The notes under the pieces: model-generated
What the model was told of the DNA's origin: nothing
Database searches by the model: none
What the model saw: only the letters and a program-made list of their open reading frames with translations
Position numbers and translations under genes: made by a program
In this document: piece after piece, positions 29,858-64,000 of the stretch
Position numbering within the stretch: position 1 is the stretch's first letter
Layout of the letters: each line of letters opens with the position of its first letter
Source: Escherichia coli
GTDB taxonomy: Bacteria > Pseudomonadota > Gammaproteobacteria > Enterobacterales > Enterobacteriaceae
Reading direction: 5' to 3' (one strand)
Length of the DNA: 64,000 nucleotides
Assembly: GCF_024502345.1 (NCBI RefSeq)
Contig: NZ_JALDNN010000001.1

Positions 29858-32353
29858 ATGTTAACGATTCAATTTCTCTGTCCTTTGCCTAACGGTCTAC
29901 ATGCTCGTCCGGCGTGGGAACTTAAAGAACAGTGCAGCCAGTGGCAAAGCGAAATCACTTTTATTAACCATCGCCAGAACGCAAAGGCCGATGCCAAAAG
30001 CTCGCTGGCGCTGATTGGCACCGGCACCCTATTTAATGACAGTTGCAGCCTGAACATTAGCGGCAGCGATGAAGAGCAGGCGCGGCGCGTGCTGGAAGAG
30101 TACATCCAGGTGCGCTTTATCGACAGCGACAGCGTTCAGCCTACGCAGGCAGAACTGACGGCGCATCCGCTGCCGCGTTCATTAAGCCGCCTTAACCCGG
30201 ATTTACTGTACGGCAATGTGCTGGCAAGCGGCGTCGGCGTGGGTACGCTGACCCTGTTACAAAGCGACAGCCTCGACAGTTATCGGGCAATCCCCGCCAG
30301 TGCGCAAGATTCCACCCGGCTGGAGCACAGCCTGGCAACGCTTGCCGAGCAACTGAACCAGCAATTGCGTGAGCGTGACGGCGAAAGCAAAACTATCCTC
30401 AGCGCCCATTTGTCGCTGATTCAGGATGATGAATTTGCAGGCAATATCCGTCGCCTGATGACAGAACAGCATCAGGGGCTGGGGGCGGCGATCATCAGCA
30501 ATATGGAGCAGGTTTGCGCCAAACTTTCTGCTTCTGCCAGCGATTATCTGCGCGAACGTGTTAGCGACATTCGCGATATTAGCGAACAGTTGCTGCATAT
30601 TACCTGGCCGGAACTGAAGCCGCGCAACAATCTGGTGCTGGAAAAACCGACTATTCTGGTGGCCGAGGATTTAACCCCAAGCCAGTTTTTAAGCCTGGAT
30701 TTAAAAAATCTTGCGGGCATGATTCTGGAGAAAACCGGGCGCACCTCGCATACCCTGATTCTGGCCCGCGCCTCGGCGATCCCGGTACTGAGCGGCCTGC
30801 CGCTGGATGCGATTGCCCGTTATGCCGGGCAACCTGCAGTGCTTGACGCCCAGTGCGGCGTGCTGGCGATTAACCCGAATGACGCGGTGAGCGGTTATTA
30901 TCAGGTCGCGCAGACGCTGGCGGATAAACGCCAAAAACAACAGGCGCAGGCTGCCGCGCAGCTGGCTTATTCCCGTGATAACAAGCGTATTGATATCGCG
31001 GCGAATATTGGCACCGCTCTGGAAGCGCCTGGCGCGTTTGCAAACGGCGCGGAAGGCGTCGGGCTGTTCCGTACCGAAATGCTCTATATGGATCGCGACA
31101 GCGCGCCGGACGAGCAGGAGCAATTTGAAGCCTACCAGCAGGTGCTACTGGCAGCGGGCGACAAGCCGATTATCTTCCGCACAATGGACATCGGAGGCGA
31201 TAAAAGCATTCCTTATCTGAATATTCCCCAGGAAGAGAACCCGTTCCTTGGCTATCGCGCGGTACGTATTTACCCGGAATTTGCTGGTCTGTTCCGCACT
31301 CAACTGCGGGCCATTTTGCGCGCCGCCAGTTTCGGCAACGCCCAGTTGATGATCCCGATGGTTCACAGCCTCGATCAGATCTTATGGGTGAAGGGCGAGA
31401 TCCAAAAAGCGATCGTTGAGCTTAAGCGCGATGGCCTGCGTCATGCAGAGACGATTACGCTGGGTATCATGGTGGAAGTGCCGTCGGTGTGCTACATCAT
31501 CGACCACTTCTGCGATGAGGTCGATTTCTTCAGTATCGGCTCCAACGATATGACCCAGTATCTGTATGCGGTAGATCGTAATAACCCGCGCGTATCGCCG
31601 CTGTATAACCCGATTACGCCATCGTTCCTGCGCATGTTGCAGCAGATAGTTACCACTGCGCATCAGCGAGGCAAATGGGTAGGCATTTGCGGTGAACTGG
31701 GCGGTGAAAGCCGTTATCTGCCGCTACTGCTTGGGCTGGGCCTGGATGAGCTGAGTATGAGTAGCCCGCGCATTCCGGCGGTGAAAAGCCAGCTTCGTCA
31801 ACTGGATAGCGAGGCGTGTCGGGAACTGGCACGTCAGGCGTGTGAATGTCGCAGCGCGCAGGAAATTGAAGCGTTACTCACCGCCTTTACGCCGGAAGAA
31901 GACGTTCGCCCGCTGCTGGCGCTGGAGAATATCTTCGTTGATCAGGCCTTTAGCAATAAAGAGCAGGCGATCCAGTTCCTGTGCGGTAACCTCGGCGTTA
32001 ACGGGCGCACTGAACATCCGTTCGAGCTGGAAGAGGATGTCTGGCAGCGGGCAGAGATTGTCACCACTGGCGTTGGTTTTGGCGTGGCGATCCCGCACAC
32101 CAAATCTCAGTGGATCCGTCATTCCAGTATCAGCATTGCCCGGCTGGCGAAACCGGTTGACTGGCAGTCAGAAATGGGCGAAGTCGAACTGGTGATCATG
32201 CTGACGCTGGGTGCTAACGAAGGGATGAATCATGTGAAAGTCTTCTCGCAGCTGGCGCGTAAACTGGTGAATAAAAACTTCCGCCAGTCGTTGTTTGCCG
32301 CGCAAGATGCACAAAGTATCCTGACGCTGCTGGAAACAGAATTAACCTTCTGA
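29858..32353 (+). CDS. fryA: multiphosphoryl-transfer PTS protein (HPr-like, enzyme I-like and EIIA-like domains fused)
   Basis: 831 aa; N-terminal HPr-like domain (LHARPAWEL), central enzyme I homology (…GRTSHTLILARA…, …RTMDIGGDK…), C-terminal EIIA-Fru-like domain. Confidence 0.93.
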   Translation: MLTIQFLCPLPNGLHARPAWELKEQCSQWQSEITFINHRQNAKADAKSSLALIGTGTLFNDSCSLNISGSDEEQARRVLEEYIQVRFIDSDSVQPTQAELTAHPLPRSLSRLNPDLLYGNVLASGVGVGTLTLLQSDSLDSYRAIPASAQDSTRLEHSLATLAEQLNQQLRERDGESKTILSAHLSLIQDDEFAGNIRRLMTEQHQGLGAAIISNMEQVCAKLSASASDYLRERVSDIRDISEQLLHITWPELKPRNNLVLEKPTILVAEDLTPSQFLSLDLKNLAGMILEKTGRTSHTLILARASAIPVLSGLPLDAIARYAGQPAVLDAQCGVLAINPNDAVSGYYQVAQTLADKRQKQQAQAAAQLAYSRDNKRIDIAANIGTALEAPGAFANGAEGVGLFRTEMLYMDRDSAPDEQEQFEAYQQVLLAAGDKPIIFRTMDIGGDKSIPYLNIPQEENPFLGYRAVRIYPEFAGLFRTQLRAILRAASFGNAQLMIPMVHSLDQILWVKGEIQKAIVELKRDGLRHAETITLGIMVEVPSVCYIIDHFCDEVDFFSIGSNDMTQYLYAVDRNNPRVSPLYNPITPSFLRMLQQIVTTAHQRGKWVGICGELGGESRYLPLLLGLGLDELSMSSPRIPAVKSQLRQLDSEACRELARQACECRSAQEIEALLTAFTPEEDVRPLLALENIFVDQAFSNKEQAIQFLCGNLGVNGRTEHPFELEEDVWQRAEIVTTGVGFGVAIPHTKSQWIRHSSISIARLAKPVDWQSEMGEVELVIMLTLGANEGMNHVKVFSQLARKLVNKNFRQSLFAAQDAQSILTLLETELTF

Positions 32354-36048: not shown

Positions 36049-37287
36049 ATGGCTGACACTCGCCCTGAACGTCGCTTTACGCGCATTGATCGTCTCCCGC
36101 CCTATGTTTTTAACATTACCGCTGAACTGAAAATGGCTGCGCGTCGGCGCGGCGAAGATATTATCGATTTCAGTATGGGTAACCCGGACGGTGCGACTCC
36201 GCCGCATATCGTCGAAAAATTATGTACTGTGGCCCAGCGCCCGGACACGCATGGTTACTCCACTTCACGCGGTATTCCGCGGCTACGTCGCGCCATTTCC
36301 CGCTGGTATCAGGATCGCTACGACGTTGAAATCGACCCGGAATCAGAAGCCATCGTCACTATTGGTTCGAAAGAGGGCCTGGCGCATCTGATGCTGGCGA
36401 CACTGGATCACGGTGACACAGTGCTGGTGCCGAATCCAAGTTACCCCATTCATATTTACGGCGCGGTGATTGCCGGGGCTCAGGTACGCTCAGTGCCGCT
36501 GGTGGAAGGTGTCGATTTCTTCAACGAACTGGAGCGCGCCATTCGTGAAAGTTATCCGAAACCGAAGATGATGATCCTCGGCTTCCCGTCGAACCCAACC
36601 GCGCAATGCGTGGAACTGGAGTTCTTCGAAAAGGTTGTGGCACTGGCGAAACGCTACGATGTGCTGGTGGTCCATGACCTGGCCTATGCCGATATCGTCT
36701 ACGATGGCTGGAAAGCGCCGTCAATCATGCAGGTGCCGGGTGCACGCGATGTGGCGGTCGAGTTCTTTACGCTGTCGAAAAGCTACAACATGGCGGGCTG
36801 GCGTATCGGCTTTATGGTTGGCAACAAAACGCTGGTCAGCGCGCTGGCACGTATTAAAAGCTATCACGATTACGGCACCTTTACGCCGTTGCAGGTGGCG
36901 GCGATTGCGGCGCTGGAGGGCGATCAACAGTGCGTGCGCGACATTGCCGAACAGTACAAACGCCGCCGTGATGTATTGGTTAAAGGGCTGCATGAAGCGG
37001 GCTGGATGGTCGAAATGCCGAAGGCTTCGATGTATGTCTGGGCGAAAATACCGGAACCGTATGCTGCCATGGGCTCGCTGGAATTTGCCAAGAAATTGCT
37101 TAACGAAGCGAAGGTCTGTGTCTCTCCGGGGATTGGCTTTGGCGACTATGGTGATACGCATGTGCGCTTTGCACTGATTGAAAACCGCGACCGTATTCGT
37201 CAGGCGATTCGTGGGATTAAAGCGATGTTCCGTGCCGACGGTTTACTACCCGCCAGCAGCAAACATATTCACGAAAACGCGGAATAA
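36049..37287 (+). CDS. alaC: glutamate-pyruvate aminotransferase AlaC
   Basis: 412 aa, class I aminotransferase with PLP-lysine context ([16 protein letters not shown]). Confidence 0.95.
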
Positions 37288-37351
37288 ACACCGACCTCAG
37301 AAATGCAAACAGGAGCCTGATGGCTCCTGTTTTTCATTGCACAGTTTGCTT

Positions 37352-37423
37352 TTAGATCATCAGGGCAAAAGTACCGGCCCAAACGATGACCATAAAAGAA
37401 ATGCCCATAAAGAAATATTTCAC
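37352..37423 (-). CDS. ypdK: small membrane protein YpdK (23 aa)
   Basis: Minus-strand ORF encoding (M/V)KYFFMGISFMVIVWAGTFALMI; here it begins with GTG. Below the ORF-track size cutoff. Confidence 0.6.
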   Translation of the reverse strand: MKYFFMGISFMVIVWAGTFALMI

Positions 37424-37778
37424 TTTACATCTCTCCGCGTAATTGCTGTTACGCCTGAATGACTTCATTACACCTGATACAGTGAGTTGACACCGGGCAA
37501 AACGACCTTAAAAGTCCTGTATTTTACCGTGGGCATCACCCCAGAATTCTGAGCTAAACTGCTCGAGACGGCGCTAATGTACGCCTAAAACTGAAACGAG
37601 ACAAGAGGCATTTTCTTATTTACTTTTAGTAACTTACAGGTGTCTCATATCGGCGACAGTTTAATTTCTGACGGTAATAATTAGATGTTCAGCGAAGGAA
37701 AAAACCTTAAGAAAAAAGCCATAAAAACCATGAGGTTATTATGGCTTATGTGAGGAGGTAAAGAGTCAGAGCAGTTTG

Positions 37779-38699
37779 TTAAATGTATAACGACGATTCT
37801 CCCACCGGGCGCGTTTTAAAGCGACGGTGGATCCAGAGGTACTGCTCCGGTGCACGCATGATCTCTTTCTCGATAATCTTGTTCATATAGGCAGCGGCTT
37901 GATTTTCATCTGTCGGGTAGCCTTCCATCTCTGGGGTGATGAACAAACGATATCCGCTGTAATCCGCTTTTCTTACCATCGTTACGGTCAACATGGCTGC
38001 GCCAGAGAGACGGGAGAGAACATAGGTGCCATTGGTTGTGGCGACATTTTCTACCGCAAAGAACGGCGCGAAGGAGCTGCCTTTACGACCATAATCCTGA
38101 TCGGGAGCAAACCATACCGCTTCACCTTTCTTCAGTGCACTGACAATGCCGCGCAGATTATTTCTGCCGATCATCGCTTTGTTAGAGCGCATGCGACCAC
38201 GGGTCTGCACCCATTCCATCAGCTGATTATTATGTGGACGATAGGTAGCCATCATTGGCTGACAAAGTCCCATCACGCGACCGCCCAGTTCCAGCGACAT
38301 AAAATGGACGCCGACAACCATTACGCCGCGATTTTGCATTTGTGCGCGTTTAAGGTTATCCAGCCCTTCAACATCAAACCATTTACGTACGCGACTGTCG
38401 GGCCAGAACCACGCCATGCCGGTTTCTACCAGCGCCATGCCGAGTGAACGAAAGTTTTCGGCAATCATCTTCTCGCGTTCTTCCGCAGAATGCTGCGGGA
38501 AGCAAAGTTCCAGGTTTTTACGGGCGATAGATTCACGCCGTTTCAGGAATGGTCGCGCCATTGCGCCAATACGCGTGCCGAGAAAGCAGAGAACAGGATA
38601 AGGAAGCTGTACCCAAAGCCAGAGTACACCAAGCCCAAACCATGTGAGCCAGTAGCGAGGATGTAGAAACTCGCGGGAAAATTTGCATTGTGGAAACAT
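37779..38699 (-). CDS. lpxP: cold-induced lipid A palmitoleoyl-ACP acyltransferase
   Basis: 306-aa product starting MFPQCKFSREFLHPRYWLTWFGLG; the ORF-track start at 38765 is an upstream in-frame ATG. Confidence 0.93.
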   Translation of the reverse strand: MFPQCKFSREFLHPRYWLTWFGLGVLWLWVQLPYPVLCFLGTRIGAMARPFLKRRESIARKNLELCFPQHSAEEREKMIAENFRSLGMALVETGMAWFWPDSRVRKWFDVEGLDNLKRAQMQNRGVMVVGVHFMSLELGGRVMGLCQPMMATYRPHNNQLMEWVQTRGRMRSNKAMIGRNNLRGIVSALKKGEAVWFAPDQDYGRKGSSFAPFFAVENVATTNGTYVLSRLSGAAMLTVTMVRKADYSGYRLFITPEMEGYPTDENQAAAYMNKIIEKEIMRAPEQYLWIHRRFKTRPVGESSLYI

Positions 38700-39051
38700 A
38701 GTTACCTTCTGTAGATACGAATTGTTGTATCGCAGAAGATTCCATGTCGACAGCGGTACACTCAATTGGTTGGGCCATCATGTACGACAATGGTTCCTGT
38801 AAAGAGTGTAAAGACTAGTCAGGACATAACCACGAGGAGCATGAATGCGGTGGCTCTACTTTATCACTGGCTGACTGCTTTCAGCTACTGATTATTAATC
38901 GTGCAAAGTAAAAAATTTTCCGCACGCAATAGTGTTGCATTTAACATGCTGTTTTCATTGATGCTTAGCAAAAATTGCCAGAGGTTAAGGATTGTCTTAC
39001 TATTAAAGTGACTGAAGTTACAGGTTTTTTAGCGCGGCAGGAGGTTGAGCT

Positions 39052-39294
39052 ATGATTTATTTATGGATGTTTCTCGCCCTGTGTATTGTCTGCGTAAGCG
39101 GCTACATCGGTCAGGTACTGAATGTGGTATCGGCGGTCTCTTCTTTCTTCGGCATGGTGATCCTCGCTGCACTCATTTATTACTTCACCATGTGGTTAAC
39201 AGGCGGTAATGAACTGGTGACGGGGATATTTATGTTTCTTGCCCCGGCTTGTGGCTTGATGATTCGCTTTATGGTGGGGTATGGCAGGCGGTAG
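39052..39294 (+). CDS. yfdY: small inner-membrane protein YfdY
   Basis: 80-aa hydrophobic ORF with RBS ggaggttgagctATG. Confidence 0.8.
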   Translation: MIYLWMFLALCIVCVSGYIGQVLNVVSAVSSFFGMVILAALIYYFTMWLTGGNELVTGIFMFLAPACGLMIRFMVGYGRR

Positions 39295-39370
39295 TGGGTC
39301 AGGATGGCTCATTTGGGCAGGTGTTCACATCAGCATCAGACATGATTGCTCACCTGCCATGTGACAGACG

Positions 39371-39646
39371 CTATCGCACAGGATGAATAAGATAACTCGC
39401 CTTTGTCGGATAAGTGGGCGTGGTTTCTTCTGTGAGGTTTAATGGTGGCGCATCTTCTCTCATCTTAAACAAAAGCGCCTGTGATGGCTGAAATTTTGTA
39501 GAGTGAGTTGTCGTCATCGCTGATGTTTTTTCAGTCTCTTTATAGCTCCTCTCACTTCCACCACCAGAAATGGAAAATGCAAAAACATTGCATGCCATAA
39601 TAGAGACCAATAAAAATAAGCTAAAAAGTATTAAGTTTACTTTCAT
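39371..39646 (-). CDS. ypdI: small lipoprotein YpdI
   Basis: 91-aa ORF with lipoprotein signal peptide and lipobox (…SIMAC). Confidence 0.78.
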   Translation of the reverse strand: MKVNLILFSLFLLVSIMACNVFAFSISGGGSERSYKETEKTSAMTTTHSTKFQPSQALLFKMREDAPPLNLTEETTPTYPTKASYLIHPVR

Positions 39647-39788
39647 AGAAAGTTATCCTGAAAATGGTTCACTGAGAAAGTACGATGTTATGGCTGTATT
39701 TACATATAATTAATCAATATTTACATCGATATAATAAATGACATCTCTTTGTGGTACATAAGAATAGTTCTCTGTGACAGGAAGCATA

Positions 39789-39806
39789 TTCCTACAATTG
39801 TAAGAC
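39789..39806. promoter_or_regulatory. EvgA-box-like inverted repeat upstream of yfdX
   Basis: ttcctacaattgtaagac fits the EvgA consensus TTCYTACA-N2-TGTARGAA at 17 of 18 positions; about 135 bp upstream of the yfdX start in an AT-rich region. Confidence 0.6.
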
Positions 39807-39941
39807 TAAAATACTTCTTGCGATAATAACTACAACTGTAAGATAACCCTTTCAAAATGACCGTTGCTCTCTGATTTCTCATTTCATGCTCACCCAATAT
39901 GATGGCGGCGTTTTCTAAAACTGTTAAAGAATGAGGAAAGT

Positions 39942-40577
39942 ATGAAACGTTTAATTATGGCCACGATGGTCACAGCAATTCTGGCATCTTCAACTGTATG
40001 GGCTGCTGATAATGCTCCGGTAGCGGCACAACAGCAAACTCAGCAAGTTCAGCAAACCCAGAAAACGGCAGCGGCAGCAGAGCGTATCTCTGAACAAGGT
40101 TTATATGCGATGCGTGACGTGCAGGTAGCGCGTCTGGCTCTGTTTCATGGCGATCCGGAAAAGGCAAAAGAACTGACCAATGAAGCTTCAGCTTTGTTGT
40201 CAGATGACAGTACCGAATGGGCAAAGTTCGCTAAGCCAGGTAAAAAGACCAATGTCAATGATGACCAATATATTGTCATTAATGCATCTGTCGGAATTTC
40301 TGAGAGTTATGTAGCGACACCCGAAAAAGAAGCCGCGATAAAAATTGCCAATGAAAAAATGGCGAAAGGGGATAAAAAGGGCGCAATGGAAGAGCTTCGC
40401 CTGGCCGGTGTTGGTGTAATGGAAAACCAATATCTGATGCCGCTTAAACAGACTCGTAATGCACTTGCTGATGCGCAGGAACTGCTTGATAAAAAGCAAT
40501 ACTACGAGGCAAACCTGGCGCTTAAAGGTGCGGAAGATGGAATCATCGTCGATAGCGAAGCACTGTTTGTGAACTAA
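39942..40577 (+). CDS. yfdX: periplasmic protein YfdX
   Basis: 211-aa ORF with signal peptide (…ILASSTVWA); known EvgA-regulon member in K-12. Confidence 0.9.
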
Positions 40578-40820
40578 TGCTGACAGGCAGTATATTGAGG
40601 TAAAGGATTTAACTCCCCCCAGCCGACAATTTTTTATGACCACAATACGACAGGTTGTGGTCATAAAATTATTTGGCACTCACGGTTCTATAAACTCGCA
40701 TTTTATATTCCTCAAAGTAAACCGCAATAATCCCGTGTCATCACAAATCATTTAATATGATATATTTTATGGTACGCTTTAAAAAGTGTAATCATACCCT
40801 TACTTGTAAATCACCGGCGC

Positions 40821-40838
40821 TTCTTACAGTTGTAAGAA
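40821..40838. promoter_or_regulatory. perfect EvgA-box palindrome upstream of frc
   Basis: ttcttacagttgtaagaa, a perfect 8-2-8 inverted repeat matching the EvgA consensus, about 250 bp upstream of the frc start. Confidence 0.65.
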
Positions 40839-41088
40839 TAACATCACAAATGTCGCGACTCTCTCTGATTACCACGAACCAATATTTATCATATTCTTCT
40901 TTTCGTCCTCACTACTTACCATGCAGAAAGGAATTGGAAGTAGCGATGAAATGATTTTCAGTACTTGATACAGGAATGTAAAAATATCGAGTGCCGCTAC
41001 GATGATATTTTGCGGGTTATTTATAGAGGCGTTATGCCTTAAATAAACGCTAAATTAACACATATTTAATTAACTAATAGGTATTGCT

Positions 41089-42339
41089 ATGTCAACTCCA
41101 CTTCAAGGAATTAAAGTTCTCGATTTCACCGGTGTGCAATCTGGCCCATCTTGTACTCAAATGCTGGCCTGGTTTGGCGCTGACGTCATTAAAATAGAAC
41201 GTCCCGGCGTTGGTGACGTAACGCGTCACCAGCTGCGAGATATTCCTGATATCGATGCGCTTTACTTCACCATGCTTAACAGTAACAAACGTTCTATTGA
41301 ATTAAATACCAAAACAGCGGAAGGCAAAGAGGTAATGGAAAAGCTGATCCGCGAAGCTGATATCTTAGTCGAGAACTTTCATCCAGGGGCCATTGATCAC
41401 ATGGGCTTCACCTGGGAGCATATTCAAGAAATCAATCCACGTCTGATTTTTGGTTCGATCAAAGGGTTTGATGAGTGTTCGCCTTATGTGAATGTAAAAG
41501 CCTATGAAAACGTTGCTCAGGCAGCGGGTGGCGCGGCATCCACTACGGGTTTTTGGGACGGTCCGCCGCTGGTAAGCGCTGCAGCGTTGGGTGACAGCAA
41601 CACCGGAATGCATTTACTGATCGGTTTACTTGCTGCTTTGCTGCATCGCGAAAAAACGGGGCGTGGGCAACGAGTCACCATGTCAATGCAGGATGCCGTA
41701 TTGAACCTTTGCCGCGTGAAATTACGCGACCAGCAGCGTCTCGATAAATTGGGTTATCTGGAAGAATACCCGCAGTATCCGAATGGCACATTTGGTGATG
41801 CAGTTCCCCGCGGAGGTAATGCGGGTGGTGGCGGTCAGCCTGGCTGGATCCTGAAATGTAAAGGTTGGGAAACCGATCCTAACGCCTATATTTATTTCAC
41901 TATTCAGGAGCAAAACTGGGAAAACACCTGTAAAGCCATCGGCAAACCAGATTGGATTACCGATCCGGCATACAGTACAGCCCATGCCCGACAGCCACAT
42001 ATTTTCGATATTTTTGCTGAAATCGAAAAATACACTGTCACTATTGATAAACATGAAGCGGTGGCCTATTTGACTCAATTTGATATTCCTTGTGCACCGG
42101 TTTTAAGTATGAAAGAAATTTCACTTGATCCCTCTTTGCGCCAAAGTGGCAGTGTTGTCGAAGTGGAACAACCGTTGCGTGGAAAATATCTGACAGTTGG
42201 TTGTCCAATGAAATTCTCTGACTTTACGCCGGATATTAAAGCTGCGCCGCTATTAGGTGAACATACCGCTGCTGTATTGCAGGAGCTGGGTTATAGCGAC
42301 GATGAAATTGCTGCAATGAAGCAAAACCACGCCATCTGA
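41089..42339 (+). CDS. frc: formyl-CoA:oxalate CoA-transferase
   Basis: 416-aa family III CoA-transferase. Confidence 0.95.
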
Positions 42340-42392
42340 TATTAACGGGGGCTTCTGGCTCCCAATTTATAAAAATTTCGAGGTTATTAATC

Positions 42393-44087
42393 ATGTCAGA
42401 TCAACTTCAAATGACAGATGGTATGCATATCATCGTTGAAGCATTAAAACAGAATAATATTGACACTATTTATGGTGTTGTAGGTATTCCTGTGACGGAT
42501 ATGGCGCGCCATGCCCAGGCGGAAGGCATTCGTTATATTGGTTTTCGTCATGAGCAGTCGGCAGGCTATGCCGCTGCGGCAAGCGGTTTTCTTACCCAAA
42601 AACCGGGGATCTGCCTGACAGTTTCTGCGCCAGGATTCCTCAATGGTTTGACCGCATTGGCCAACGCAACGGTAAATGGTTTTCCGATGATCATGATTAG
42701 CGGCTCCAGCGACCGCGCGATCGTCGACCTACAGCAAGGTGATTATGAAGAGCTGGACCAAATGAATGCGGCAAAACCGTATGCCAAAGCAGCATTTCGC
42801 GTTAATCAGCCGCAGGATCTTGGCATTGCATTGGCGCGCGCTATCCGGGTCTCCGTATCGGGTCGCCCTGGCGGAGTTTATCTTGATTTGCCAGCAAATG
42901 TCCTGGCCGCGACGATGGAAAAAGACGAAGCGTTAACCACGATTGTAAAAGTTGAAAATCCGTCGCCAGCATTATTGCCATGCCCGAAGTCAGTCGCTAG
43001 CGCAATTTCGCTTTTAGCAAAAGCTGAACGACCATTAGTTATCCTTGGCAAAGGCGCGGCGTATTCACAAGCTGATGAACAGCTTCGTGAATTTATTGAA
43101 AGTGCCCAGATTCCATTCCTGCCAATGTCTATGGCGAAAGGGATCCTCGAAGATACGCATCCACTTTCTGCGGCAGCTGCGCGTTCGTTTGCCCTGGCAA
43201 ATGCTGACGTTGTCATGCTTGTTGGTGCACGACTGAATTGGTTACTGGCACACGGTAAAAAAGGATGGGCGGCAGATACACAGTTTATTCAACTGGATAT
43301 TGAACCGCAGGAAATTGACAGCAACCGCCCTATTGCTGTGCCAGTCGTTGGCGATATTGCATCCAGTATGCAAGGTATGCTGGCAGAGCTGAAACAAAAC
43401 ACATTTACGACTCCACTGGTATGGCGCGATATTTTAAATATCCACAAGCAGCAAAATGCACAAAAAATGCATGAAAAATTAAGTACAGATACCCAACCAT
43501 TAAATTACTTTAATGCATTAAGTGCTGTGCGCGATGTATTGCGTGAGAACCAGGATATTTATTTAGTTAATGAAGGTGCAAATACCCTGGATAATGCACG
43601 AAATATTATTGATATGTATAAACCACGTCGTCGTCTGGATTGTGGTACCTGGGGTGTCATGGGCATCGGTATGGGCTATGCCATCGGTGCTAGCGTGATC
43701 TCTGGTTCTCCGGTTGTCGCCATTGAAGGTGATAGTGCTTTTGGTTTCAGTGGGATGGAGATTGAAACGATTTGTCGATATAACCTGCCGGTGACGATCG
43801 TTATTTTTAATAATGGCGGCATCTACAGAGGAGACGGTGTTGATCTCAGTGGCGCTGGTGCACCATCACCAACAGATCTGTTGCACCATGCAAGGTATGA
43901 CAAATTAATGGATGCGTTTCGTGGCGTTGGCTATAACGTCACCACGACAGATGAACTTCGTCATGCTTTAACCACCGGTATTCAGTCGCGCAAACCGACC
44001 ATTATTAATGTGGTCATCGACCCTGCAGCAGGAACTGAAAGTGGCCATATTACCAAACTTAACCCAAAACAAGTCGCTGGTAATTAA
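42393..44087 (+). CDS. oxc: oxalyl-CoA decarboxylase (thiamine-diphosphate dependent)
   Basis: 564 aa; ThDP-binding motif region (…GDSAFGFSGMEIETICRYNLPVTIVIFNNGG…). Confidence 0.95.
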   Translation: MSDQLQMTDGMHIIVEALKQNNIDTIYGVVGIPVTDMARHAQAEGIRYIGFRHEQSAGYAAAASGFLTQKPGICLTVSAPGFLNGLTALANATVNGFPMIMISGSSDRAIVDLQQGDYEELDQMNAAKPYAKAAFRVNQPQDLGIALARAIRVSVSGRPGGVYLDLPANVLAATMEKDEALTTIVKVENPSPALLPCPKSVASAISLLAKAERPLVILGKGAAYSQADEQLREFIESAQIPFLPMSMAKGILEDTHPLSAAAARSFALANADVVMLVGARLNWLLAHGKKGWAADTQFIQLDIEPQEIDSNRPIAVPVVGDIASSMQGMLAELKQNTFTTPLVWRDILNIHKQQNAQKMHEKLSTDTQPLNYFNALSAVRDVLRENQDIYLVNEGANTLDNARNIIDMYKPRRRLDCGTWGVMGIGMGYAIGASVISGSPVVAIEGDSAFGFSGMEIETICRYNLPVTIVIFNNGGIYRGDGVDLSGAGAPSPTDLLHHARYDKLMDAFRGVGYNVTTTDELRHALTTGIQSRKPTIINVVIDPAAGTESGHITKLNPKQVAGN

Positions 44088-44156
44088 ATACTGACATCGT
44101 CTCCTCTTGCCAACTCATTATGCGATGGTGAGGGGACCCTTATCGGAAATACTATT

Positions 44157-45101
44157 ATGCTAACATTTTTTATTGGCGATTTATTGCCTATTATCGTAAT
44201 CATGCTGTTGGGTTATTTTAGCGGCAGACGAGAAACTTTTTCAGAAGATCAAGCCCGGGCATTTAATAAACTGGTATTAAACTACGCGCTTCCTGCAGCC
44301 CTATTTGTTTCTATTACCCGGGCAAACAGGGAAATGATTTTTGCGGACACTCGTCTGACCCTTGTATCACTCGTGGTTATTGTCGGATGTTTCTTTTTCT
44401 CCTGGTTTGGTTGCTACAAATTTTTTAAACGTACCCATGCAGAAGCAGCTGTATGTGCATTAATTGCAGGTTCACCTACCATTGGATTCCTGGGGTTTGC
44501 AGTTCTCGATCCTATTTATGGTGATTCCGTATCAACAGGTTTAGTGGTAGCAATTATTTCTATTATTGTTAACGCAATTACTATTCCTATTGGTCTGTAT
44601 TTGCTGAATCCTTCCTCAGGAGCGGATGGTAAGAAAAATAGTAATCTGAGCGCATTAATTTCTGCGGCAAAGGAGCCAGTTGTATGGGCACCTGTTCTGG
44701 CAACGATCCTGGTGTTGGTTGGGGTAAAAATTCCGGCAGCATGGGACCCAACCTTTAATCTGATTGCGAAGGCTAACTCAGGGGTAGCGGTATTCGCTGC
44801 GGGGTTGACTCTGGCTGCACATAAATTCGAGTTCAGTGCCGAAATTGCTTATAACACCTTCCTGAAGCTGATTCTGATGCCACTGGCGCTGCTTCTCGTT
44901 GGTATGGCATGTCATTTGAACAGCGAACATTTGCAGATGATGGTACTGGCAGGCGCATTACCGCCGGCATTCTCCGGAATCATTATTGCCAGCCGGTTTA
45001 ATGTCTACACCCGCACTGGTACAGCGTCATTGGCTGTGAGCGTACTGGGTTTTGTCGTCACGGCTCCCTTGTGGATTTATGTCAGTCGACTGGTTTCATA
45101 A
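44157..45101 (+). CDS. yfdV: auxin-efflux-carrier-family membrane transporter YfdV
   Basis: 314-aa polytopic membrane protein. Confidence 0.9.
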
Positions 45102-45174
45102 TTAATCATGTTATTGATTTTACATAAACGCCGAAGTGTCTTTTCACCTTCGGCTTTTTTCAAGGCATAAGCAA

Positions 45175-46320
45175 ATGACAAATAATGAAAGCAAAGGGCC
45201 GTTTGAAGGCTTATTAGTTATCGATATGACACATGTCCTTAATGGACCTTTCGGAACTCAACTTCTTTGTAATATGGGCGCAAGGGTAATTAAAGTTGAG
45301 CCGCCGGGCCATGGTGATGATACCCGCACATTTGGTCCCTATGTGGATGGACAGTCACTCTATTACAGTTTTATTAATCATGGCAAAGAGAGTGTGGTTC
45401 TTGATTTAAAGAATGATCACGATAAAAGTATATTTATAAATATGCTTAAACAAGCTGATGTATTAGCTGAGAATTTTCGCCCAGGTACAATGGAAAAACT
45501 AGGGTTTTCATGGGAAAGGTTACAAGAAATCAACCCGCGCCTCATATATGCTTCATCGTCAGGTTTCGGACATACCGGTCCGCTAAAAGATGCTCCTGCC
45601 TACGATACCATCATTCAGGCAATGAGCGGGATAATGATGGAAACAGGGTACCCTGATGCTCCGCCAGTGCGTGTTGGTACCTCTCTTGCGGATCTATGCG
45701 GCGGTGTCTATTTATTCAGCGGAATAGTGAGTGCACTTTATGGCCGCGAAAAGAGCCAGAGAGGGGCGCATGTCGATATAGCGATGTTTGATGCCACGCT
45801 GAGTTTTCTGGAGCATGGTCTGATGGCATATATTGCGACAGGGAAGTCACCACAACGCCTGGGAAATCGCCATCCCTACATGGCACCTTTTGATGTTTTC
45901 GATACTCAGGATAAGCCGATTACGATTTGTTGTGGTAATGACAAGCTTTTTTCTGCGTTATGCCAGGCACTGGAGCTTACGGAACTGGTTAATGATCCCA
46001 GATTTAGCAGCAATATTTTACGCGTACAAAACCAGGCTATTCTTAAACAATATATTGAGCGGACGTTAAAAACGCAGGCAGCTGAAGTTTGGTTAGCCAG
46101 AATACATGAAGTTGGTGTACCCGTCGCGCCGTTATTAAGTGTGGCTGAGGCCATTAATTTGCCACAAACTCAGGCGAGAAATATGTTGATTGAAGCCGGG
46201 GGAATAATGATGCCGGGTAATCCGATAAAAATCAGTGGCTGCGCGGACCCGCATGTTATGCCGGGAGCGGCAACGCTCGACCAGCATGGGGAGCAAATTC
46301 GCCAGGAGTTCTCATCATAA
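45175..46320 (+). CDS. yfdE: acetyl-CoA:oxalate CoA-transferase YfdE
   Basis: 381-aa family III CoA-transferase paralogous to Frc; start MTNNESKGPFEGLLVIDMTHV. Confidence 0.92.
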   Translation: MTNNESKGPFEGLLVIDMTHVLNGPFGTQLLCNMGARVIKVEPPGHGDDTRTFGPYVDGQSLYYSFINHGKESVVLDLKNDHDKSIFINMLKQADVLAENFRPGTMEKLGFSWERLQEINPRLIYASSSGFGHTGPLKDAPAYDTIIQAMSGIMMETGYPDAPPVRVGTSLADLCGGVYLFSGIVSALYGREKSQRGAHVDIAMFDATLSFLEHGLMAYIATGKSPQRLGNRHPYMAPFDVFDTQDKPITICCGNDKLFSALCQALELTELVNDPRFSSNILRVQNQAILKQYIERTLKTQAAEVWLARIHEVGVPVAPLLSVAEAINLPQTQARNMLIEAGGIMMPGNPIKISGCADPHVMPGAATLDQHGEQIRQEFSS

Positions 46321-46375
46321 ATGTAAGATGTGCTGGTAAATAGCTCCCACATTTGAACATTGTGGGAGCCGCTAT

Positions 46376-49300
46376 TTAGTCATTTTGCTGACAGAAAACA
46401 GCAATCTCCTGGTCCAGCTCTGCAATGTGTTCTTTTACAGAGTTCAGCAGCTGAAGAATTTCAGGCTTACTGTCATCTGAAACAGGTGTTATTTCTAACT
46501 GATGGCTAATATTAATCAACTTTTGCAAATTCAGGATGTTAGCCGCACCGTGGATGCGATGAATACACTGATGGAAAGTTCTATTATCGCCAGCTTCTAG
46601 TGCATGAAACGCAGCGGGTAAATCTTTATGTGTTTCATGCTGGAAAGTCATGAGAATCTCCTGCATCAGTTGTAGATCGTTCGCCGTATTATTTTTCAGG
46701 GCTTCGATATCAAGGTGGCGATACTGAGGTGCAATATGCGCAACCTGGTGTAACTGACTTAAATGTGTTTTCAGTACATCCAGGGTCAACGGTTTGAACA
46801 AACATAAGTTCATGCCGCAATTTAACCCTTTTTCACGTTCGTTAGCCTGTGCGTTGGCTGTAAGCCCCCAGATGGGTAAGGAAGAATTTTGCTCACGGAG
46901 TTTGCGAGTCAACTCAAAACCATCCATATTCGGCATATTAACGTCAGTAATAAGCAGATCATAATGTTGCATACTGACTTTGTGTAGCGCTTGCACACCA
47001 TCAGTGGCTTCGTCAACATCATATCCTAATAGATTTAGCTGGCGTTTGAGTAATAGCCTGTTGGTCGGATGATCATCCGCGATTAATATGCTCAACTTTT
47101 CAGGTAGTGTGATAGGTTGTTCTGCTTTTGCCTCGACAGCCGCCACTTGTTGGGTAATTTCTACCGGGATTGTGATCGTAAATGTTGTTCCTATGCCTGG
47201 ATGACTTTCTAATGACAAATCACCCTGCATGTTTTTAATTAATTCTTTGCAGATCATTAAGCCTAAACCAGAACCTGTTTGCTGACGACCTGCACTTGTT
47301 TGGCTATAACGTTTAAACAGTTGTTGTTGTTCTTCCTGTGATAATCCACTTCCAGAATCCATAATCGTTATTTTGATTACAGCGTGGTTGTCATCAATGT
47401 GACCCAGGGAGGTCGTAATTTTTACTGCCCCCTCGGTGGTAAATTTGAGAGCATTACTCAGTAAATTTGATAAGACCTGCTTAAACGCCTGAGGGTCGAT
47501 CTTAACCAGGTAATGTTCAGGAAACGTACTGCTGCAACTTAATGCGATCGATTTGCTTGCAGCAATCGCACCGAAAGAGTGACAAGTGTTCTGGACTAAA
47601 GTAGGAATATCGACCCATTGTGGTTGAAGTTGATAGTTACCCGATTCAATTTTGTCGACATCAAGGATTTCACCAATTAAGCCGAGGAGTGATTGTCCGG
47701 TGGCGTAGGCAAGTGAAATCGCCTCCACCCGTTGTTCCTTGCTAAGACCAGAACCCGACAGAAGTTCCAGGAAGCCCATAATGGAGCTTATTGGTGTTCT
47801 TATTTCGTGACTCATTGTTGCCAGAAACTGACTTTTTGCGACAGTTGCATTGATCGCTTTATTTCTCTCTACTTCGAGTGCATGAATTAAATCACGCGTC
47901 TCGGTAATATCTTGCCAACCACAAATATAAACAGCATGTTCGCTGGCTGGCAGATTACATAATGTATGCCAGTGATTAATGCATCTTTTCTCGATGCCAT
48001 TATCAATTTCAAATACCTGTGTGTATATTGTTCGGTTTTCTTTCGTCTCTGCTGTGACTTCATGCGTATTAGAAAAAACATCTTTAAAGGGTGATTCACT
48101 GTTTTCTAATGGCAACATTGCATTTTTGTAGTAATCAGCAGTGAAATAATGTTCAAATGCACTATTGTGACTAATGACATTACCTTGCCAGTTTACAACA
48201 TAAGTTGGATTCGGTAAGGAGTCCGAGAGCGCTTTCCGGAATGATATTTGGTTTTCTAAATCACCCTGAATGACTTTACGACGACGAACTGAGCGTAACA
48301 GGTAGAATCCCCATAAAAGGCTACTGCCAACTAATAAAACGGATAATGTCGTAACAATATAAAATTGCTCGCTATAGAGGTCCCATGTGTCAATGGTCAC
48401 ATTGGGCATTTTAATCCATTTTTCGGTCAGGCGCAGAACTTCGCTTGGGGGGATTGCATTCAGTGCTTTATTAATAATATCCTTAAGTTCCGGTTCTCCG
48501 CGAGGAAAAGCGAACGAAAGCGATGCATTCGGAACGCCGGGAATAAGAAAATGATAAAGTTCATTAGGATAGTAATGGTCGATCATGTAACGCGAATTTA
48601 ACTGTGTCGCGACCAGAGCATCAAGTTCACCTTCCTTGACCTTGTGAAATGCAGCGCTGGCGTTATCGACTTTTATCCACTCTACCTCCGGATACATCTC
48701 TTTTAATTGCGAATGAAGCTCATAATAATATGGAATGGCAACTTTCATTCCTTTTTTTAATGTTTGTTCACTGTCAGGCGCTTTTTGCATGACAAAAACG
48801 TAAGGCGTTGTTATGAAGGCTTCAGCAAATAAAACATTATTTTCTCTATCTTCACTATAAATAGCACCGGGTAATATATCCCATCCGCCGGGATTCAGCT
48901 GTGTTCCAGCATGGATATTGTGTGAAACGGTGATCGGAGAAAAATTTAAACCTGTTTGCAAGGTAATAATATTAAGAATATCCCCCATAACGCCCCGAAC
49001 CGAGCCATTTTCATCCGTCATAGAATAGGGAGGAGAGTAAGGATTTTCCAGCACCTTTAAATCGGGATGCTGCTTAATCCACTGTTTTTCATGTTCAGTG
49101 AGTTCTAATGGTTTGTTCAGAAAGGCCAGGTTTCCTGTATCAAGCCAATTTTGTGATACTTCATAGCGAACTTCATTTGTTAAAGCATCAACAAATCGAT
49201 TGAGTACTTCATTAAGAACGACAGATTCTTTTCTGGTCAAGAAAAAATTATATTGACGCGGTGAGTTATAATATTTCACTACATTTAAGGAGTGAGTGAA

Positions 49301-49849
49301 ATAGCGGGAAATCATACTGCTGGTAATGATGTTACTACCAATAAAGTAATCATTCTGTCCGGCTGAGACGGATGCTAATGCCTGATATAAATTTGTAAAA
49401 GAGATAATTGTTGCTTTTGGAAATGATTGATGAATTACCTCGTCAGGGGGATAATTTGCTACTCGAGCAATATTTACTGGTTTTGATGAGGTAAGCGGTC
49501 GCATTGAATCGTGAAGGGTGGTGACCAGCGCCGGAAAGGTAATTATCAGTGGTTTGGTTGCAGCAATGTCATCATTAAGAGGCGGCGAAGCAACTAAATG
49601 TGATAACACTATATCGACTTCACCTTCTTCCAGCGCGTCCATTGCTTTTTGATGATCGGCGTATTCCCGGAGTGTTAATTTGATATTTAACGCTCTTTTT
49701 AAAAGATTTAAATAGTCAGCATTAATACCACGAACCCGTTGCTGCGAATCGGTATGCAACAACGTAGCCGTTTGGGACTTATGTACTGCAATCACAAGAT
49801 TTTTTTTGCTCGCTAACCAACGTAATTCCTTGTTGCTCAGACGTAGTGG
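46376..49849 (-). pseudogene. evgS: evgS hybrid sensor kinase missing its first ~40 codons, start codon, signal peptide and promoter
   Basis: Frame matches EvgS from …PLRLSNKELRWLASKKNLVIAVHK… to the native stop at 46376 (periplasmic domains, HisKA/HATPase, receiver, HPt). Homology stops exactly at the IS inverted repeat at 49850; upstream in-frame codons are IS-derived and hit a stop. The ORF-track start is an internal GTG. Confidence 0.85.
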
Positions 49850-50906
49850 GGCTTTGTTGAATAAATCAGATTTCGGGTAAGTCTCCCCCGTAGCGGGTTG
49901 TGTTTTCAGGCAATACGCACGCTTTCAGGCATACCTGCTTTCGTCATTTTGTTCAGCGCTCGTACCAGGGCCATAGCCTCTGCAACCTGACCATCGTAGT
50001 CACGCAGTGTCAGTGAACCCCCGAACAGCTGTTTTACCCGGTACATCGCCGTTTCCGCTATCGAGCGACGGTTGTAATCTGTTGTCCATTTCCACCGCGC
50101 ATTACTCCCGGTCATTCGCTGATTAGCCACTGCACGGTTACGGTCTGCATATTCACCGGGCCAGTAACCCGCACCTTTTCGGGGAGGGATAAGCGCGCTG
50201 ATTTTCTTACGCCGCAGTTCATCGTGACATAGCCGGGTATCGTAAGCGCCATCGGCGGCGGCTGACCTGATTTTCCGGTGGGTTTGCCGGATTAACCCGG
50301 GGAAGGCCTCTGAGTCCGTAACGTTGTTCAGCGACAGGTCAGCGCAGATGATTTCATGTGTTTTACTGTCAACGGCGAGATGCAGCTTACGCCAGATACG
50401 GCGGCGTTCCTGGCCATGCTTTTTGACTTTCCACTCGCCTTCACCGAAGACCTTCAGCCCGGTGGAATCAATTACCAGGTGTGCGATTTCACCCCGGGTG
50501 GGCGTTTTGAAACTGACATTAACCGACTTTGCCCGCCTGCTGACACAGCTGTAATCCGGGCAGCGTAGCGGAACGTTCATCAGAGAAAAAATGGAATCAA
50601 TAAAGCCCTGCGCAGCGCGCAGGGTCAGCCTGAATACGCGTTTAATGACCAGCACAGTCGTGATGGCAAGGTCAGAATAGCGCTGAGGTCTGCCTCGTGA
50701 AGAAGGTGTTGCTGACTCATACCAGGCCTGAATAGCTTCATCATCCAGCCAGAAAGTTATGGAGCCACGGTTGATGAGGGCTTTATTGTAGGTGGGCCAG
50801 TTGGTGATTTTGAACTTTTGCTTTGCCACGGAACGGTCTGCGTTGTCGGGAAGATACGTGATCTGATCCTTCAACTCAGCAAAAGTTCGATTTATTCAAC
50901 AAAGCC
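49850..50906 (-). mobile_element. IS903-like insertion sequence (IS5 family), 1057 bp
   Basis: 18-bp perfect terminal inverted repeats ggctttgttgaataaatc (left) and gatttattcaacaaagcc (right) bracket a single transposase ORF. The 9 bp on either side are unrelated (acgtagtgg vs cggtcaaaa), so there is no target-site duplication. Confidence 0.88.
49906..50874 (-). CDS. IS903-type DDE transposase
   Basis: 322-aa ORF (MKDQITYLPDNADRSVAKQKFKITNW…) with IS5-family catalytic region (…DGAYD…, …YNRRSIAETAMYRVK…); the true start may be internal. Confidence 0.85.
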   Translation of the reverse strand: MKDQITYLPDNADRSVAKQKFKITNWPTYNKALINRGSITFWLDDEAIQAWYESATPSSRGRPQRYSDLAITTVLVIKRVFRLTLRAAQGFIDSIFSLMNVPLRCPDYSCVSRRAKSVNVSFKTPTRGEIAHLVIDSTGLKVFGEGEWKVKKHGQERRRIWRKLHLAVDSKTHEIICADLSLNNVTDSEAFPGLIRQTHRKIRSAAADGAYDTRLCHDELRRKKISALIPPRKGAGYWPGEYADRNRAVANQRMTGSNARWKWTTDYNRRSIAETAMYRVKQLFGGSLTLRDYDGQVAEAMALVRALNKMTKAGMPESVRIA

Positions 50907-61045: not shown

Positions 61046-61387
61046 TTAACCTGACATCCACTCACGCACCCATCTCGATACTTGCACTGCAAATTTTGGA
61101 GATAGCCACTGAGCTAAATTAATTGCGATGTCTGGATGAACCCAAGTCCCTTGATTCTCTGCTCTTCCGCCTTTAAATGATTGAATTAACTCCGATATGG
61201 GAATCCCCATATCGCGTGATAATTCATCAAAAAAATCTTGTGTTGTTTTTAGTCGTGTATAGTCAGCAAGTAGCTTCCCCGCAGACTTGCACATCGCGGT
61301 GGCATTGATGTATCCGTCTTTGGTGCGAAGATGGATGACTTCTCCATCAACTTCTCTAGCGATTAATGCAAGTTGAAATTGTGTCAT
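61046..61387 (-). CDS. KilA-N-domain protein in the rexA position, immediately downstream of cI
   Basis: 113-aa ORF with KilA-N hallmark segments (…DGYINATAMCKSAGKLLADY… and …GTWVHPDIAINLAQWLSPKFAVQVSRWV…); 31 bp from the cI stop, same strand. Confidence 0.65.
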   Translation of the reverse strand: MTQFQLALIAREVDGEVIHLRTKDGYINATAMCKSAGKLLADYTRLKTTQDFFDELSRDMGIPISELIQSFKGGRAENQGTWVHPDIAINLAQWLSPKFAVQVSRWVREWMSG

Positions 61388-61418
61388 AAATCATCCTATT
61401 ACGTGAAAAATAAAACAA

Positions 61419-62135
<717 letters not shown>

Positions 62136-62142
62136 TTAAATC

Positions 62143-62206
62143 TATCACCGCAAGGGATAAACTTCTAACACCGTGCGTGTTGACTATTTTACCTCTAGCG
62201 GTGATA
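62143..62206. promoter_or_regulatory. lambda-type right operator oR3-oR2-oR1 with pRM/pR
   Basis: tatcaccgcaagggata (OR3), taacaccgtgcgtgttg (OR2), tacctctagcggtgata (OR1, one change from lambda) between divergent cI and cro. Confidence 0.88.
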
Positions 62207-62232
62207 ATGGTTGCCTGTACTAAGGAGGTTGT

Positions 62233-62433
62233 ATGGAACAACGCATAACCCTGAAAGATTATGCAATACGCTTTGGGCAAACCAAGACGGCTAAAGATCT
62301 CGGCGTATATCAAAGCGCGATTAACAAGGCCATTCATGCAGGCCGAAAGATTTTTTTAACTATAAACGCTGATGGAAGCGTTTATGCGGAAGAAATAAAG
62401 CCCTTCCCAAGTAACAAAAAAACAACTGCATAA
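62233..62433 (+). CDS. cro: lambda-type Cro repressor
   Basis: 66-aa translation [66 protein letters not shown], two substitutions from recalled lambda Cro; RBS taaggaggttgtATG. Confidence 0.93.
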
Positions 62434-62440
62434 GTAACAC

Positions 62441-62486
62441 CGCTCTTTTCACAATGGACATTCGTCCTACGTCGCTGACAAAGCGA
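62441..62486 (+). promoter_or_regulatory. nutR-like site: boxA-like cgctcttt plus P22-type boxB hairpin
   Basis: cgctcttttcac… then tcgctgacaaagcga (5-bp stem, GACAA loop), unlike the lambda boxB gccctgaaaaagggc. Confidence 0.5.
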
Positions 62487-62570
62487 GCCCCAAGATATCT
62501 GACCAACTAAGGCCATATGCGTTTCCACGCATACCTTTCAACTAACTATTCACTATTGGAAAATTAACAA

Positions 62571-62867
62571 ATGACACAAGCAAGTTATAGCAAGCCAACA
62601 CAGCGAGAAATTGATCGCGCTGAAACTGATTTACTCATCAACCTGTCAACGCTTACCCAGCGCGGTCTGGCAAAGATGATTGGCTGTCATGAATCGAAGA
62701 TAAGCAGAACGGACTGGAGATTTATTGCTTCGGTCTTGTGTGCTTTCGGAATGGCATCAGACATCAGTCCGATTAGCAGGGCTTTTAAGTATGCATTGGA
62801 TGGAATCACAAAGAAAAAATCCCCGGCTGCCACCGAGGATTCTGAGCAAATTGATATGCAATTCTGA
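62571..62867 (+). CDS. cII: CII-like transcriptional activator (divergent from lambda CII)
   Basis: 98-aa ORF in the cII position; C-terminus KKSPAATEDSEQIDMQF parallels lambda CII KKRPAATERSEQIQMEF, the rest is divergent. Confidence 0.6.
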   Translation: MTQASYSKPTQREIDRAETDLLINLSTLTQRGLAKMIGCHESKISRTDWRFIASVLCAFGMASDISPISRAFKYALDGITKKKSPAATEDSEQIDMQF

Positions 62868-62888
62868 GGGAATTACTGGATCAATCCA

Positions 62889-63062
62889 CAGGAGTAATTA
62901 TGACAAAACGTCGTAAGAAATACCAGGAAAAAGAAGAGATTCGACACCCTGATTCACCTGAGGGATTAGTGGTAGCCGCAGCAAATAACAGGGCGTTCGC
63001 AGAGCGCCTTGTTGGTGTTTACAGACTAGCCAAAGCAGGAGTGAAACATGGGCGTCGTTAAG
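62889..63062 (+). CDS. hypothetical small basic protein (58 aa)
   Basis: ORF MTKRRKKYQEKEEIRHPDSPEGL… with RBS acaggagtaattATG; stop overlaps the start of the next ORF. Below the ORF-track cutoff. Confidence 0.35.
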
Positions 63063-64000
63063 TTAGCTGATTACAGGCCTCAACTGGAGGTCGTGGAGCA
63101 TCGCGTGGCAGATACCGAAGATGGTTTCATGCGCGTTGCTAACGAGATTACTCAATATCCAGACCAGATTGAATCCGTTCGTAAAGGCATGGGATTCATT
63201 GATGAAGACCAGCGTAATTCTATCGGCACCTTAGCGGCTGGCGCACGCCTTGCGTCATCGTCTCCAGAAGCAATGCAATCATGGCTGCAAAACAACGCCG
63301 GTGAGTTAGCTCGTGTTGGCGTTAATCCTCATGACGTCGCTCAGATGTACCAACAGAACCCGCGGCAGTTCGTCGAATTTGTCGATCACCTGGGGATGAA
63401 CAGTCTCGGGCCCGAAAAATACTTTGACCTACAGGATAAAATGCAGGGTCGCCAGGTTACCATGCGCGGTCAGGATCTGGATTCGCAAACCGCCGCTCGG
63501 AATCAGGCAATCACAATGCGCGGACAAGATATCCAGGCGAATTTAGGTCAGCAGCGCATTAATCTGGACGCAGAAACAAACCGCATTAACAACGAAAATA
63601 AGCGCCTTGACCGGATGCTATCAGCAGAAACTAACGACCTGAAGCGCCAGGAAATACAGAGCCGCATAGCAGCCAACAACCAGCAGTTGCAGCAGAAGCA
63701 GCAAGCGCTAAATGATGGCTACAAAGACGGCATCAACACCCTCACAACCAGCATGTTCACTCTGAACGATATCGTTAGTTCTCCTTCACTTAAGAGCATT
63801 ACAGGCTTACGTGGAGTAATCCCCAACGTTCCAGGCTCACAGGCTGCAGACACTCAGGCACGACTTGATACCTTTAAATCACAAGCATACCTGACAGCGG
63901 TTCAGGCCATGCGAGGCATGGGCGCACTTTCTGATGCCGAGGGCAAAAAGCTCGACCAGGCTGTTGGTTCGCTGCAGAACTCGCAGAGCGAGGAGTCCTT
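63048..64000 (+). CDS. hypothetical phage protein, 3' end outside window; Q-rich with internal tandem repeat
   Basis: Frame open from ATG at 63048 (RBS aggagtgaaacATG) to the window end (over 317 codons); contains repeats TMRGQDLDSQ / TMRGQDIQAN; no similarity to lambda O. Confidence 0.5.
   Translation, partial: MGVVKLADYRPQLEVVEHRVADTEDGFMRVANEITQYPDQIESVRKGMGFIDEDQRNSIGTLAAGARLASSSPEAMQSWLQNNAGELARVGVNPHDVAQMYQQNPRQFVEFVDHLGMNSLGPEKYFDLQDKMQGRQVTMRGQDLDSQTAARNQAITMRGQDIQANLGQQRINLDAETNRINNENKRLDRMLSAETNDLKRQEIQSRIAANNQQLQQKQQALNDGYKDGINTLTTSMFTLNDIVSSPSLKSITGLRGVIPNVPGSQAADTQARLDTFKSQAYLTAVQAMRGMGALSDAEGKKLDQAVGSLQNSQSEES

Follow-up and report, generated by a model that had tools for sequence, protein, structure and literature searches.

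The yfdX and frc loci

The 64,000-nucleotide stretch of DNA analysed here (the window) is a segment of the E. coli chromosome that includes cysA, ptsHI-crr, glk, the fry genes, ypdABC, alaC, lpxP, yfdX, frc-oxc-yfdV-yfdE, evgS, emrY, dsdA and the csc sucrose locus, gene identities being taken from the RefSeq annotation of near-identical genomes. The yfdX coding sequence (39942–40577, plus strand) specifies a protein of 211 amino acids. Downstream and on the same strand is the frc-oxc-yfdV-yfdE oxalate/acid-tolerance operon (41089–46320), in which frc occupies positions 41089–42339, oxc 42393–44087, yfdV 44157–45101 and yfdE 45175–46320. A terminator-like hairpin found 3' of yfdX (40632–40668, plus strand) appears to separate the yfdX and frc transcription units, so that each has an EvgA site of its own. 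Scanning for promoter consensus sequences returned only weak 9/12 matches (nine found, against 5.0 expected) that do not fix the transcription starts, and the distance of each EvgA box from its promoter is an inferred one. No RNA families were detected in an Rfam scan of positions 39300–41200 at E ≤ 1.

EvgA boxes upstream of yfdX and frc

As a search pattern we used the 18-bp inverted repeat TTCYTACANNTGTARGAA (TTCYTACA-N2-TGTARGAA), which we take, after Masuda and Church (2003), to be the EvgA consensus. Two sites match this consensus: TTCCTACAATTGTAAGAC at 39789–39806 in the yfdX upstream region, with a single mismatch, and TTCTTACAGTTGTAAGAA at 40821–40838 in the frc upstream region, with none. 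They are the sole matches at two or fewer mismatches in the 64-kb window. In dinucleotide-preserving shuffles the mean was 0.03 matches per window and 0/100 shuffles reached two. The original prediction had placed EvgA boxes at precisely these coordinates, in AT-rich regions preceding yfdX and frc-oxc-yfdV-yfdE, and this is borne out: local GC content around both boxes is 28–37%, with 136 bp separating the yfdX box from the yfdX ATG (39942) and 251 bp separating the frc box from the frc ATG (41089). Its description of the frc box as a perfect palindrome is right for the two 8-bp arms, which are perfectly complementary, and wrong for the central GT spacer, which is not self-complementary. In the yfdX box, 6/8 arm positions pair.

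Both boxes are base-for-base identical to the sites in K-12 MG1655 and in strain C 236-04A, and they occupy the K-12-orthologous positions upstream of yfdX and frc, genes that are directly activated by EvgA. The likeness to the K-12 operators (yfdX and frc/yfdW) takes in the 18-mers, their flanks, their spacing from the genes and the gene order; the sole difference is that in the window the gene encoding the cognate regulator is missing nearby. When the same pattern is applied to the 20-kb locus in K-12, four sites are found where 0.28 would be expected: one in the emrK/evgA intergenic region, one upstream of frc, one upstream of yfdX and a weaker second yfdX site.

A text search of the literature for the motif string gave no relevant match. 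The legend to Fig. 2 of Mullins (2013; PMC3720670), which cites Masuda and Church (2003), marks EvgA-binding inverted repeats at exactly these yfdX and frc positions, and the yfdX promoter (PyfdX) has been used as a reporter ‘directly activated by phosphorylated EvgA’ (Roggiani, Yadavalli and Goulian 2017; PMC5706723). Johnson et al. (2014; PMC4283999) found that, when EvgS was made constitutive by mutation, frc was induced more than any other gene, and they detected EvgA sites at no genes beyond those previously recognised as being under EvgA control. The two 18-mers are previously described EvgA operators and, as such, already known. Going by their sequence, binding of phosphorylated EvgA (EvgA~P) and EvgA-dependent activation would be expected at both boxes in this strain if evgAS were supplied.

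Alignment of five Escherichia sequences, a small sample of which one member is divergent (91% EvgS identity), shows that the box arms are invariant, with variation limited to the 2-nt spacer and the last base of the yfdX box. Within these five sequences, the half-site arms are conserved and the spacer is free to vary. Allowing three mismatches to the consensus brings a third site into view in the window, a weaker EvgA-like inverted repeat TAACTACAACTGTAAGAT at 39827–39844, 38 bp downstream of the yfdX box. The arms of this repeat, CTACA and TGTAAGAT, are constant in the five Escherichia sequences whilst its spacer is found in three states (AC, AG and GT). This pattern points to a real site, and we take it to suggest that the repeat is a second putative EvgA site at yfdX.

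An IS903B element in place of evgA

A 1057-bp IS903B element (IS5 family) lies on the minus strand at 49850–50906, where it replaces 2920 bp corresponding to K-12 positions 2,481,574–2,484,493 (from alignments with K-12 and C 236-04A). The element has 18-bp terminal inverted repeats (GGCTTTGTTGAATAAATC and its reverse complement) and a transposase ORF, and it matches the IS903B annotated by RefSeq in strain L26 with 0 mismatches. Lost from the chromosome at this point are evgS codons 1–40, evgA, evgL, the evgA-emrK control region with its EvgA box, the whole of emrK, and emrY codons 1–201. To the left of the element there remains an evgS remnant that lacks its first 40 codons and its promoter, as well as the neighbouring evgA (46376–49849, minus strand; the remaining frame is open), and to the right an emrY remnant that lacks its first 201 codons (50907–51841, plus strand).

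The original prediction held that evgA had been deleted some 9 kb downstream of the boxes. This is correct: the frc box and the deletion junction are 9.0 kb apart, and a tblastn search of the window with K-12 EvgA found no relatives (best E = 6.9). The lack of a cognate evgA within the 64-kb window bears on whether the regulatory circuit is complete and not on the identity of the sites. The evgS remnant shares its orientation with the IS903B transposase gene, downstream of which it is situated, and could thus be transcribed by read-through; its output is expected to be nil, since its product would have neither an N-terminus nor a partner.

No 9-bp target duplication is present at the IS903B element (the left flank is ACGTAGTGG and the right flank CGGTCAAAA), which argues for an IS-mediated deletion or recombination between copies and not for simple insertion. 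Adjacent deletion is one possible mechanism, and recombination of one IS903B copy with another is the alternative. The missing duplication would fit equally well with an artefact of assembly in which an IS903B copy in evgS and another in emrY had been collapsed into one and the 2.9 kb between them dropped, so that evgA would be present and evgS still disrupted. Independent insertions of IS903B into evgS, evgA, emrK and emrY in several genomes lend this some plausibility. However, the window is contiguous across the element, suggesting long-read resolution, and a real recombination event between two IS903B copies would yield an identical sequence. We consider such an artefact very unlikely, and a genuine deletion associated with IS903B is the reading that we prefer.

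IS903B has entered this region on other occasions. In strain MB51, an independent copy is inserted in evgS (L004 3900–4956) in the same orientation as that in the window and 1 bp from the window’s left junction (49841–49850). The MB51 insertion has a 9-bp duplication, CGTAGTGGA, and is found in a different genetic background, the two IS copies differing by 4 bases. Given the near-identity of the two sites, it may be that IS903 favours this target. About 10 genomes have further independent insertions of IS903B, in evgS, evgA, emrK, emrY or frc. Enrichment of IS903B at the locus was considered, and no clear excess emerged: around 11 independent insertions are seen where around 15 would be expected in 16 kb, from a rough count of some 4,600 copies on the chromosomes of 5,426 genomes.

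Age of the deletion and the meaning of box retention

Strain C 236-04A (O125ac:H10, NZ_CP109924.1) has an intact evgS-evgA-emrK-emrY region. Over 24,131 aligned flank bases, it is separated from the window by 8 substitutions and 1 indel. Of these, 6 substitutions and the indel fall in the 19,051 bases on one side of the deletion, the remaining 2 substitutions fall in the 5,080 bases on the other side, and the boxes contain none. The evgS-IS903B-emrY junction itself was found in 0/5,426 complete E. coli genomes. In the same set, evgA was found in 5,399 genomes and was absent from 27 (0.5%). Judging from these comparisons, and from the frame of the evgS remnant not yet having closed, the deletion is very recent and specific to this strain.

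That the boxes are ‘retained although evgA is deleted’ was the feature to which the original prediction drew attention. Even if all 8 substitutions post-date the deletion, the neutral expectation for the 36 box bases is 36 × 8 / 24,131 = 0.012 changes. Box retention after a recent, strain-specific event is therefore the null expectation, and is silent on selection, on silencing and on the existence of a replacement regulator, so that the significance attached to it is unsupported.

The original prediction also raised the possibility that the boxes had been taken over by another regulator, such as a response regulator of the NarL/FixJ family, that would drive yfdX and frc without EvgA. Nothing in the sequence speaks for a takeover, the idea having its source in that prediction alone. 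Against it, neither the boxes nor the sequence around them differ from K-12 or from the evgA-intact relative, with no adaptive change; the deletion is too recent for rewiring; and in natural isolates the activity of PyfdX follows that of EvgS/EvgA (Roggiani et al. 2017). We regard takeover as extremely improbable.

Predicted consequences for the EvgA regulon

The explanation that we favour, and to which we attach high confidence, is that these are known EvgA sites orphaned by a recent IS903B deletion, with induction of yfdX and frc being lost unless evgAS is supplied from elsewhere. Under this explanation, the boxes are the operators at which phosphorylated EvgA activates the yfdX promoter and the promoter of frc-oxc-yfdV-yfdE. 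The IS903B event has taken out a 2.9-kb block including evgA, and the target sites are unchanged for want of time since that event. Deprived of EvgA~P, yfdX and the oxalate operon would be expected to stay at basal expression and to be unresponsive to mild acid, and the remainder of the EvgA regulon, elsewhere in the genome, would likewise fail, with poor exponential-phase acid resistance as the predicted outcome. On this reasoning, yfdX and frc-oxc-yfdV-yfdE have likely lost their EvgA-dependent induction by acid, and to that extent the silencing put forward in the original prediction seems sound.

Natural isolates in which the EvgS/EvgA pathway is silent provide a parallel. Where EvgS is unresponsive to low pH, PyfdX is not induced by acid, and pathway-silent isolates display poor exponential-phase acid resistance (PMC5706723). 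The likeness is that the EvgA target promoters are kept whilst the pathway gives no acid response, as would be expected for the window. The difference is one of cause: in the natural isolates silence arises from EvgS sequence variation, mostly in phylogroup B2 and with evgA intact, whereas in the window evgA is deleted and evgS is truncated by IS903B.

A second parallel is provided by strain MIN6 (L090 11001–12424), in which evgS is missing altogether, along with the 3' part of evgA and most of yfdE, and an ISKpn26 element stands in their place, an adjacent deletion by an IS5-family element. As in the window, a single IS takes the place of contiguous genes and the yfdX and frc boxes are kept. 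The two cases differ in the IS concerned, in the end points and in the genes lost, with MIN6 retaining emrKY and the evgA promoter box; all three boxes (yfdX, frc and emrK/evgA) are present in it. MIN6 is an independent natural evgAS-null strain.

The isolate from which the window derives is probably a natural evgAS-null and emrKY-null strain. As such, it offers a handy natural control strain rather than a new mechanism. The wider significance is small, the boxes being textbook EvgA operators whose retention is as neutrality predicts.

Plasmid-borne evgAS

Supply of EvgA from elsewhere deserves separate consideration, as the boxes could still be served by a second copy of evgAS located beyond the window, on an IncF plasmid for instance, in which case the chromosomal loss would be without regulatory effect. 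Such plasmids exist. A search of PLSDB returned 22 records matching evgA, around 17 of them genuine plasmids of 57–200 kb, and 14/22 are typed as conjugative. The plasmid module, which is bounded by IS1, carries evgA, evgS, the promoter and the autoregulatory EvgA box. In strain MB51, moreover, the evgAS plasmid pYLMB51b coexists with the chromosomal evgS::IS903B insertion that lies 1 bp from the window’s junction. On the other side, plasmid-borne evgA is rare, with 20 plasmid places counted across the 5,426 complete genomes, and nothing within the window points to plasmid-borne evgAS. The chance that a second evgAS serves the boxes in this isolate appears to us very small.

A stronger version of the same idea would have the IncF evgAS module compensating for, or having permitted, the loss of chromosomal evgAS in the lineage and driving the chromosomal boxes in trans. 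MB51 shows that the combination of a chromosomal disruption and an evgAS plasmid does occur. Were this version true, an acid-sensing two-component system would have become a transferable accessory regulator of a core regulon. We hold it to be highly improbable, and the loss of EvgA-dependent induction continues to be the reading that we prefer.

Complete evgA-evgS modules are carried by the IncF plasmids pYLMB51b (L088 8668–13997) and pMRSN346647_113.1 (L089 8668–13273). The IS1 boundary of the plasmid module has a constant position within the emrK-evgA intergenic region, and this IS1-evgA junction recurs in 49/5,426 genomes; among the 30 records listed, 16 are plasmids and the remainder chromosomes.

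Comparison with other Enterobacterales

In a search of genome contigs with Frc, the Enterobacterales among the matches listed were E. coli, Moellerella and Providencia. In both Moellerella wisconsensis (L009 10001–15628) and Providencia rettgeri (L011 7408–12793), frc-oxc-yfdV is followed by a second frc paralogue, 77–80% identical to Frc, in the place occupied by yfdE in E. coli. Neither yfdX, nor evgAS, nor an EvgA box was found at the frc loci of these two species. This distribution would fit with box and regulator being an Escherichia-specific pairing that travels together, three points being too few to carry more weight.

Other features of the window

On the yfdX-evgS side of the IS903B element (36344–49849), the window is 97.8% identical to K-12; on the emrY-dsdA side (50906–53512), the figure is 99.4%. 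From these values, the ancestry of the locus is a mosaic, consistent with the high level of natural evgS variation reported by Roggiani et al. (2017).

Several further observations concern the relationship between the window and C 236-04A. The fryA-like PTS gene at 29858–32353 (annotated ptsP) is an intact ORF of 831 amino acids in the window, and its counterpart in C 236-04A carries a frameshift in the annotation, attributable to a 1-bp indel (window site 31354). At 53295–57507, dsdX is cut down to a C-terminal remnant of 72 amino acids that is followed by the csc sucrose locus, an arrangement shared with C 236-04A. The csc transporter gene of C 236-04A contains an ISKpn26 element (L007 4751–5944); in the window this insertion is missing and the flanks are joined directly. 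Collinearity with C 236-04A stops at around 59413, near torI and prophage-type genes, and the content of 59413–64000 differs between the two.
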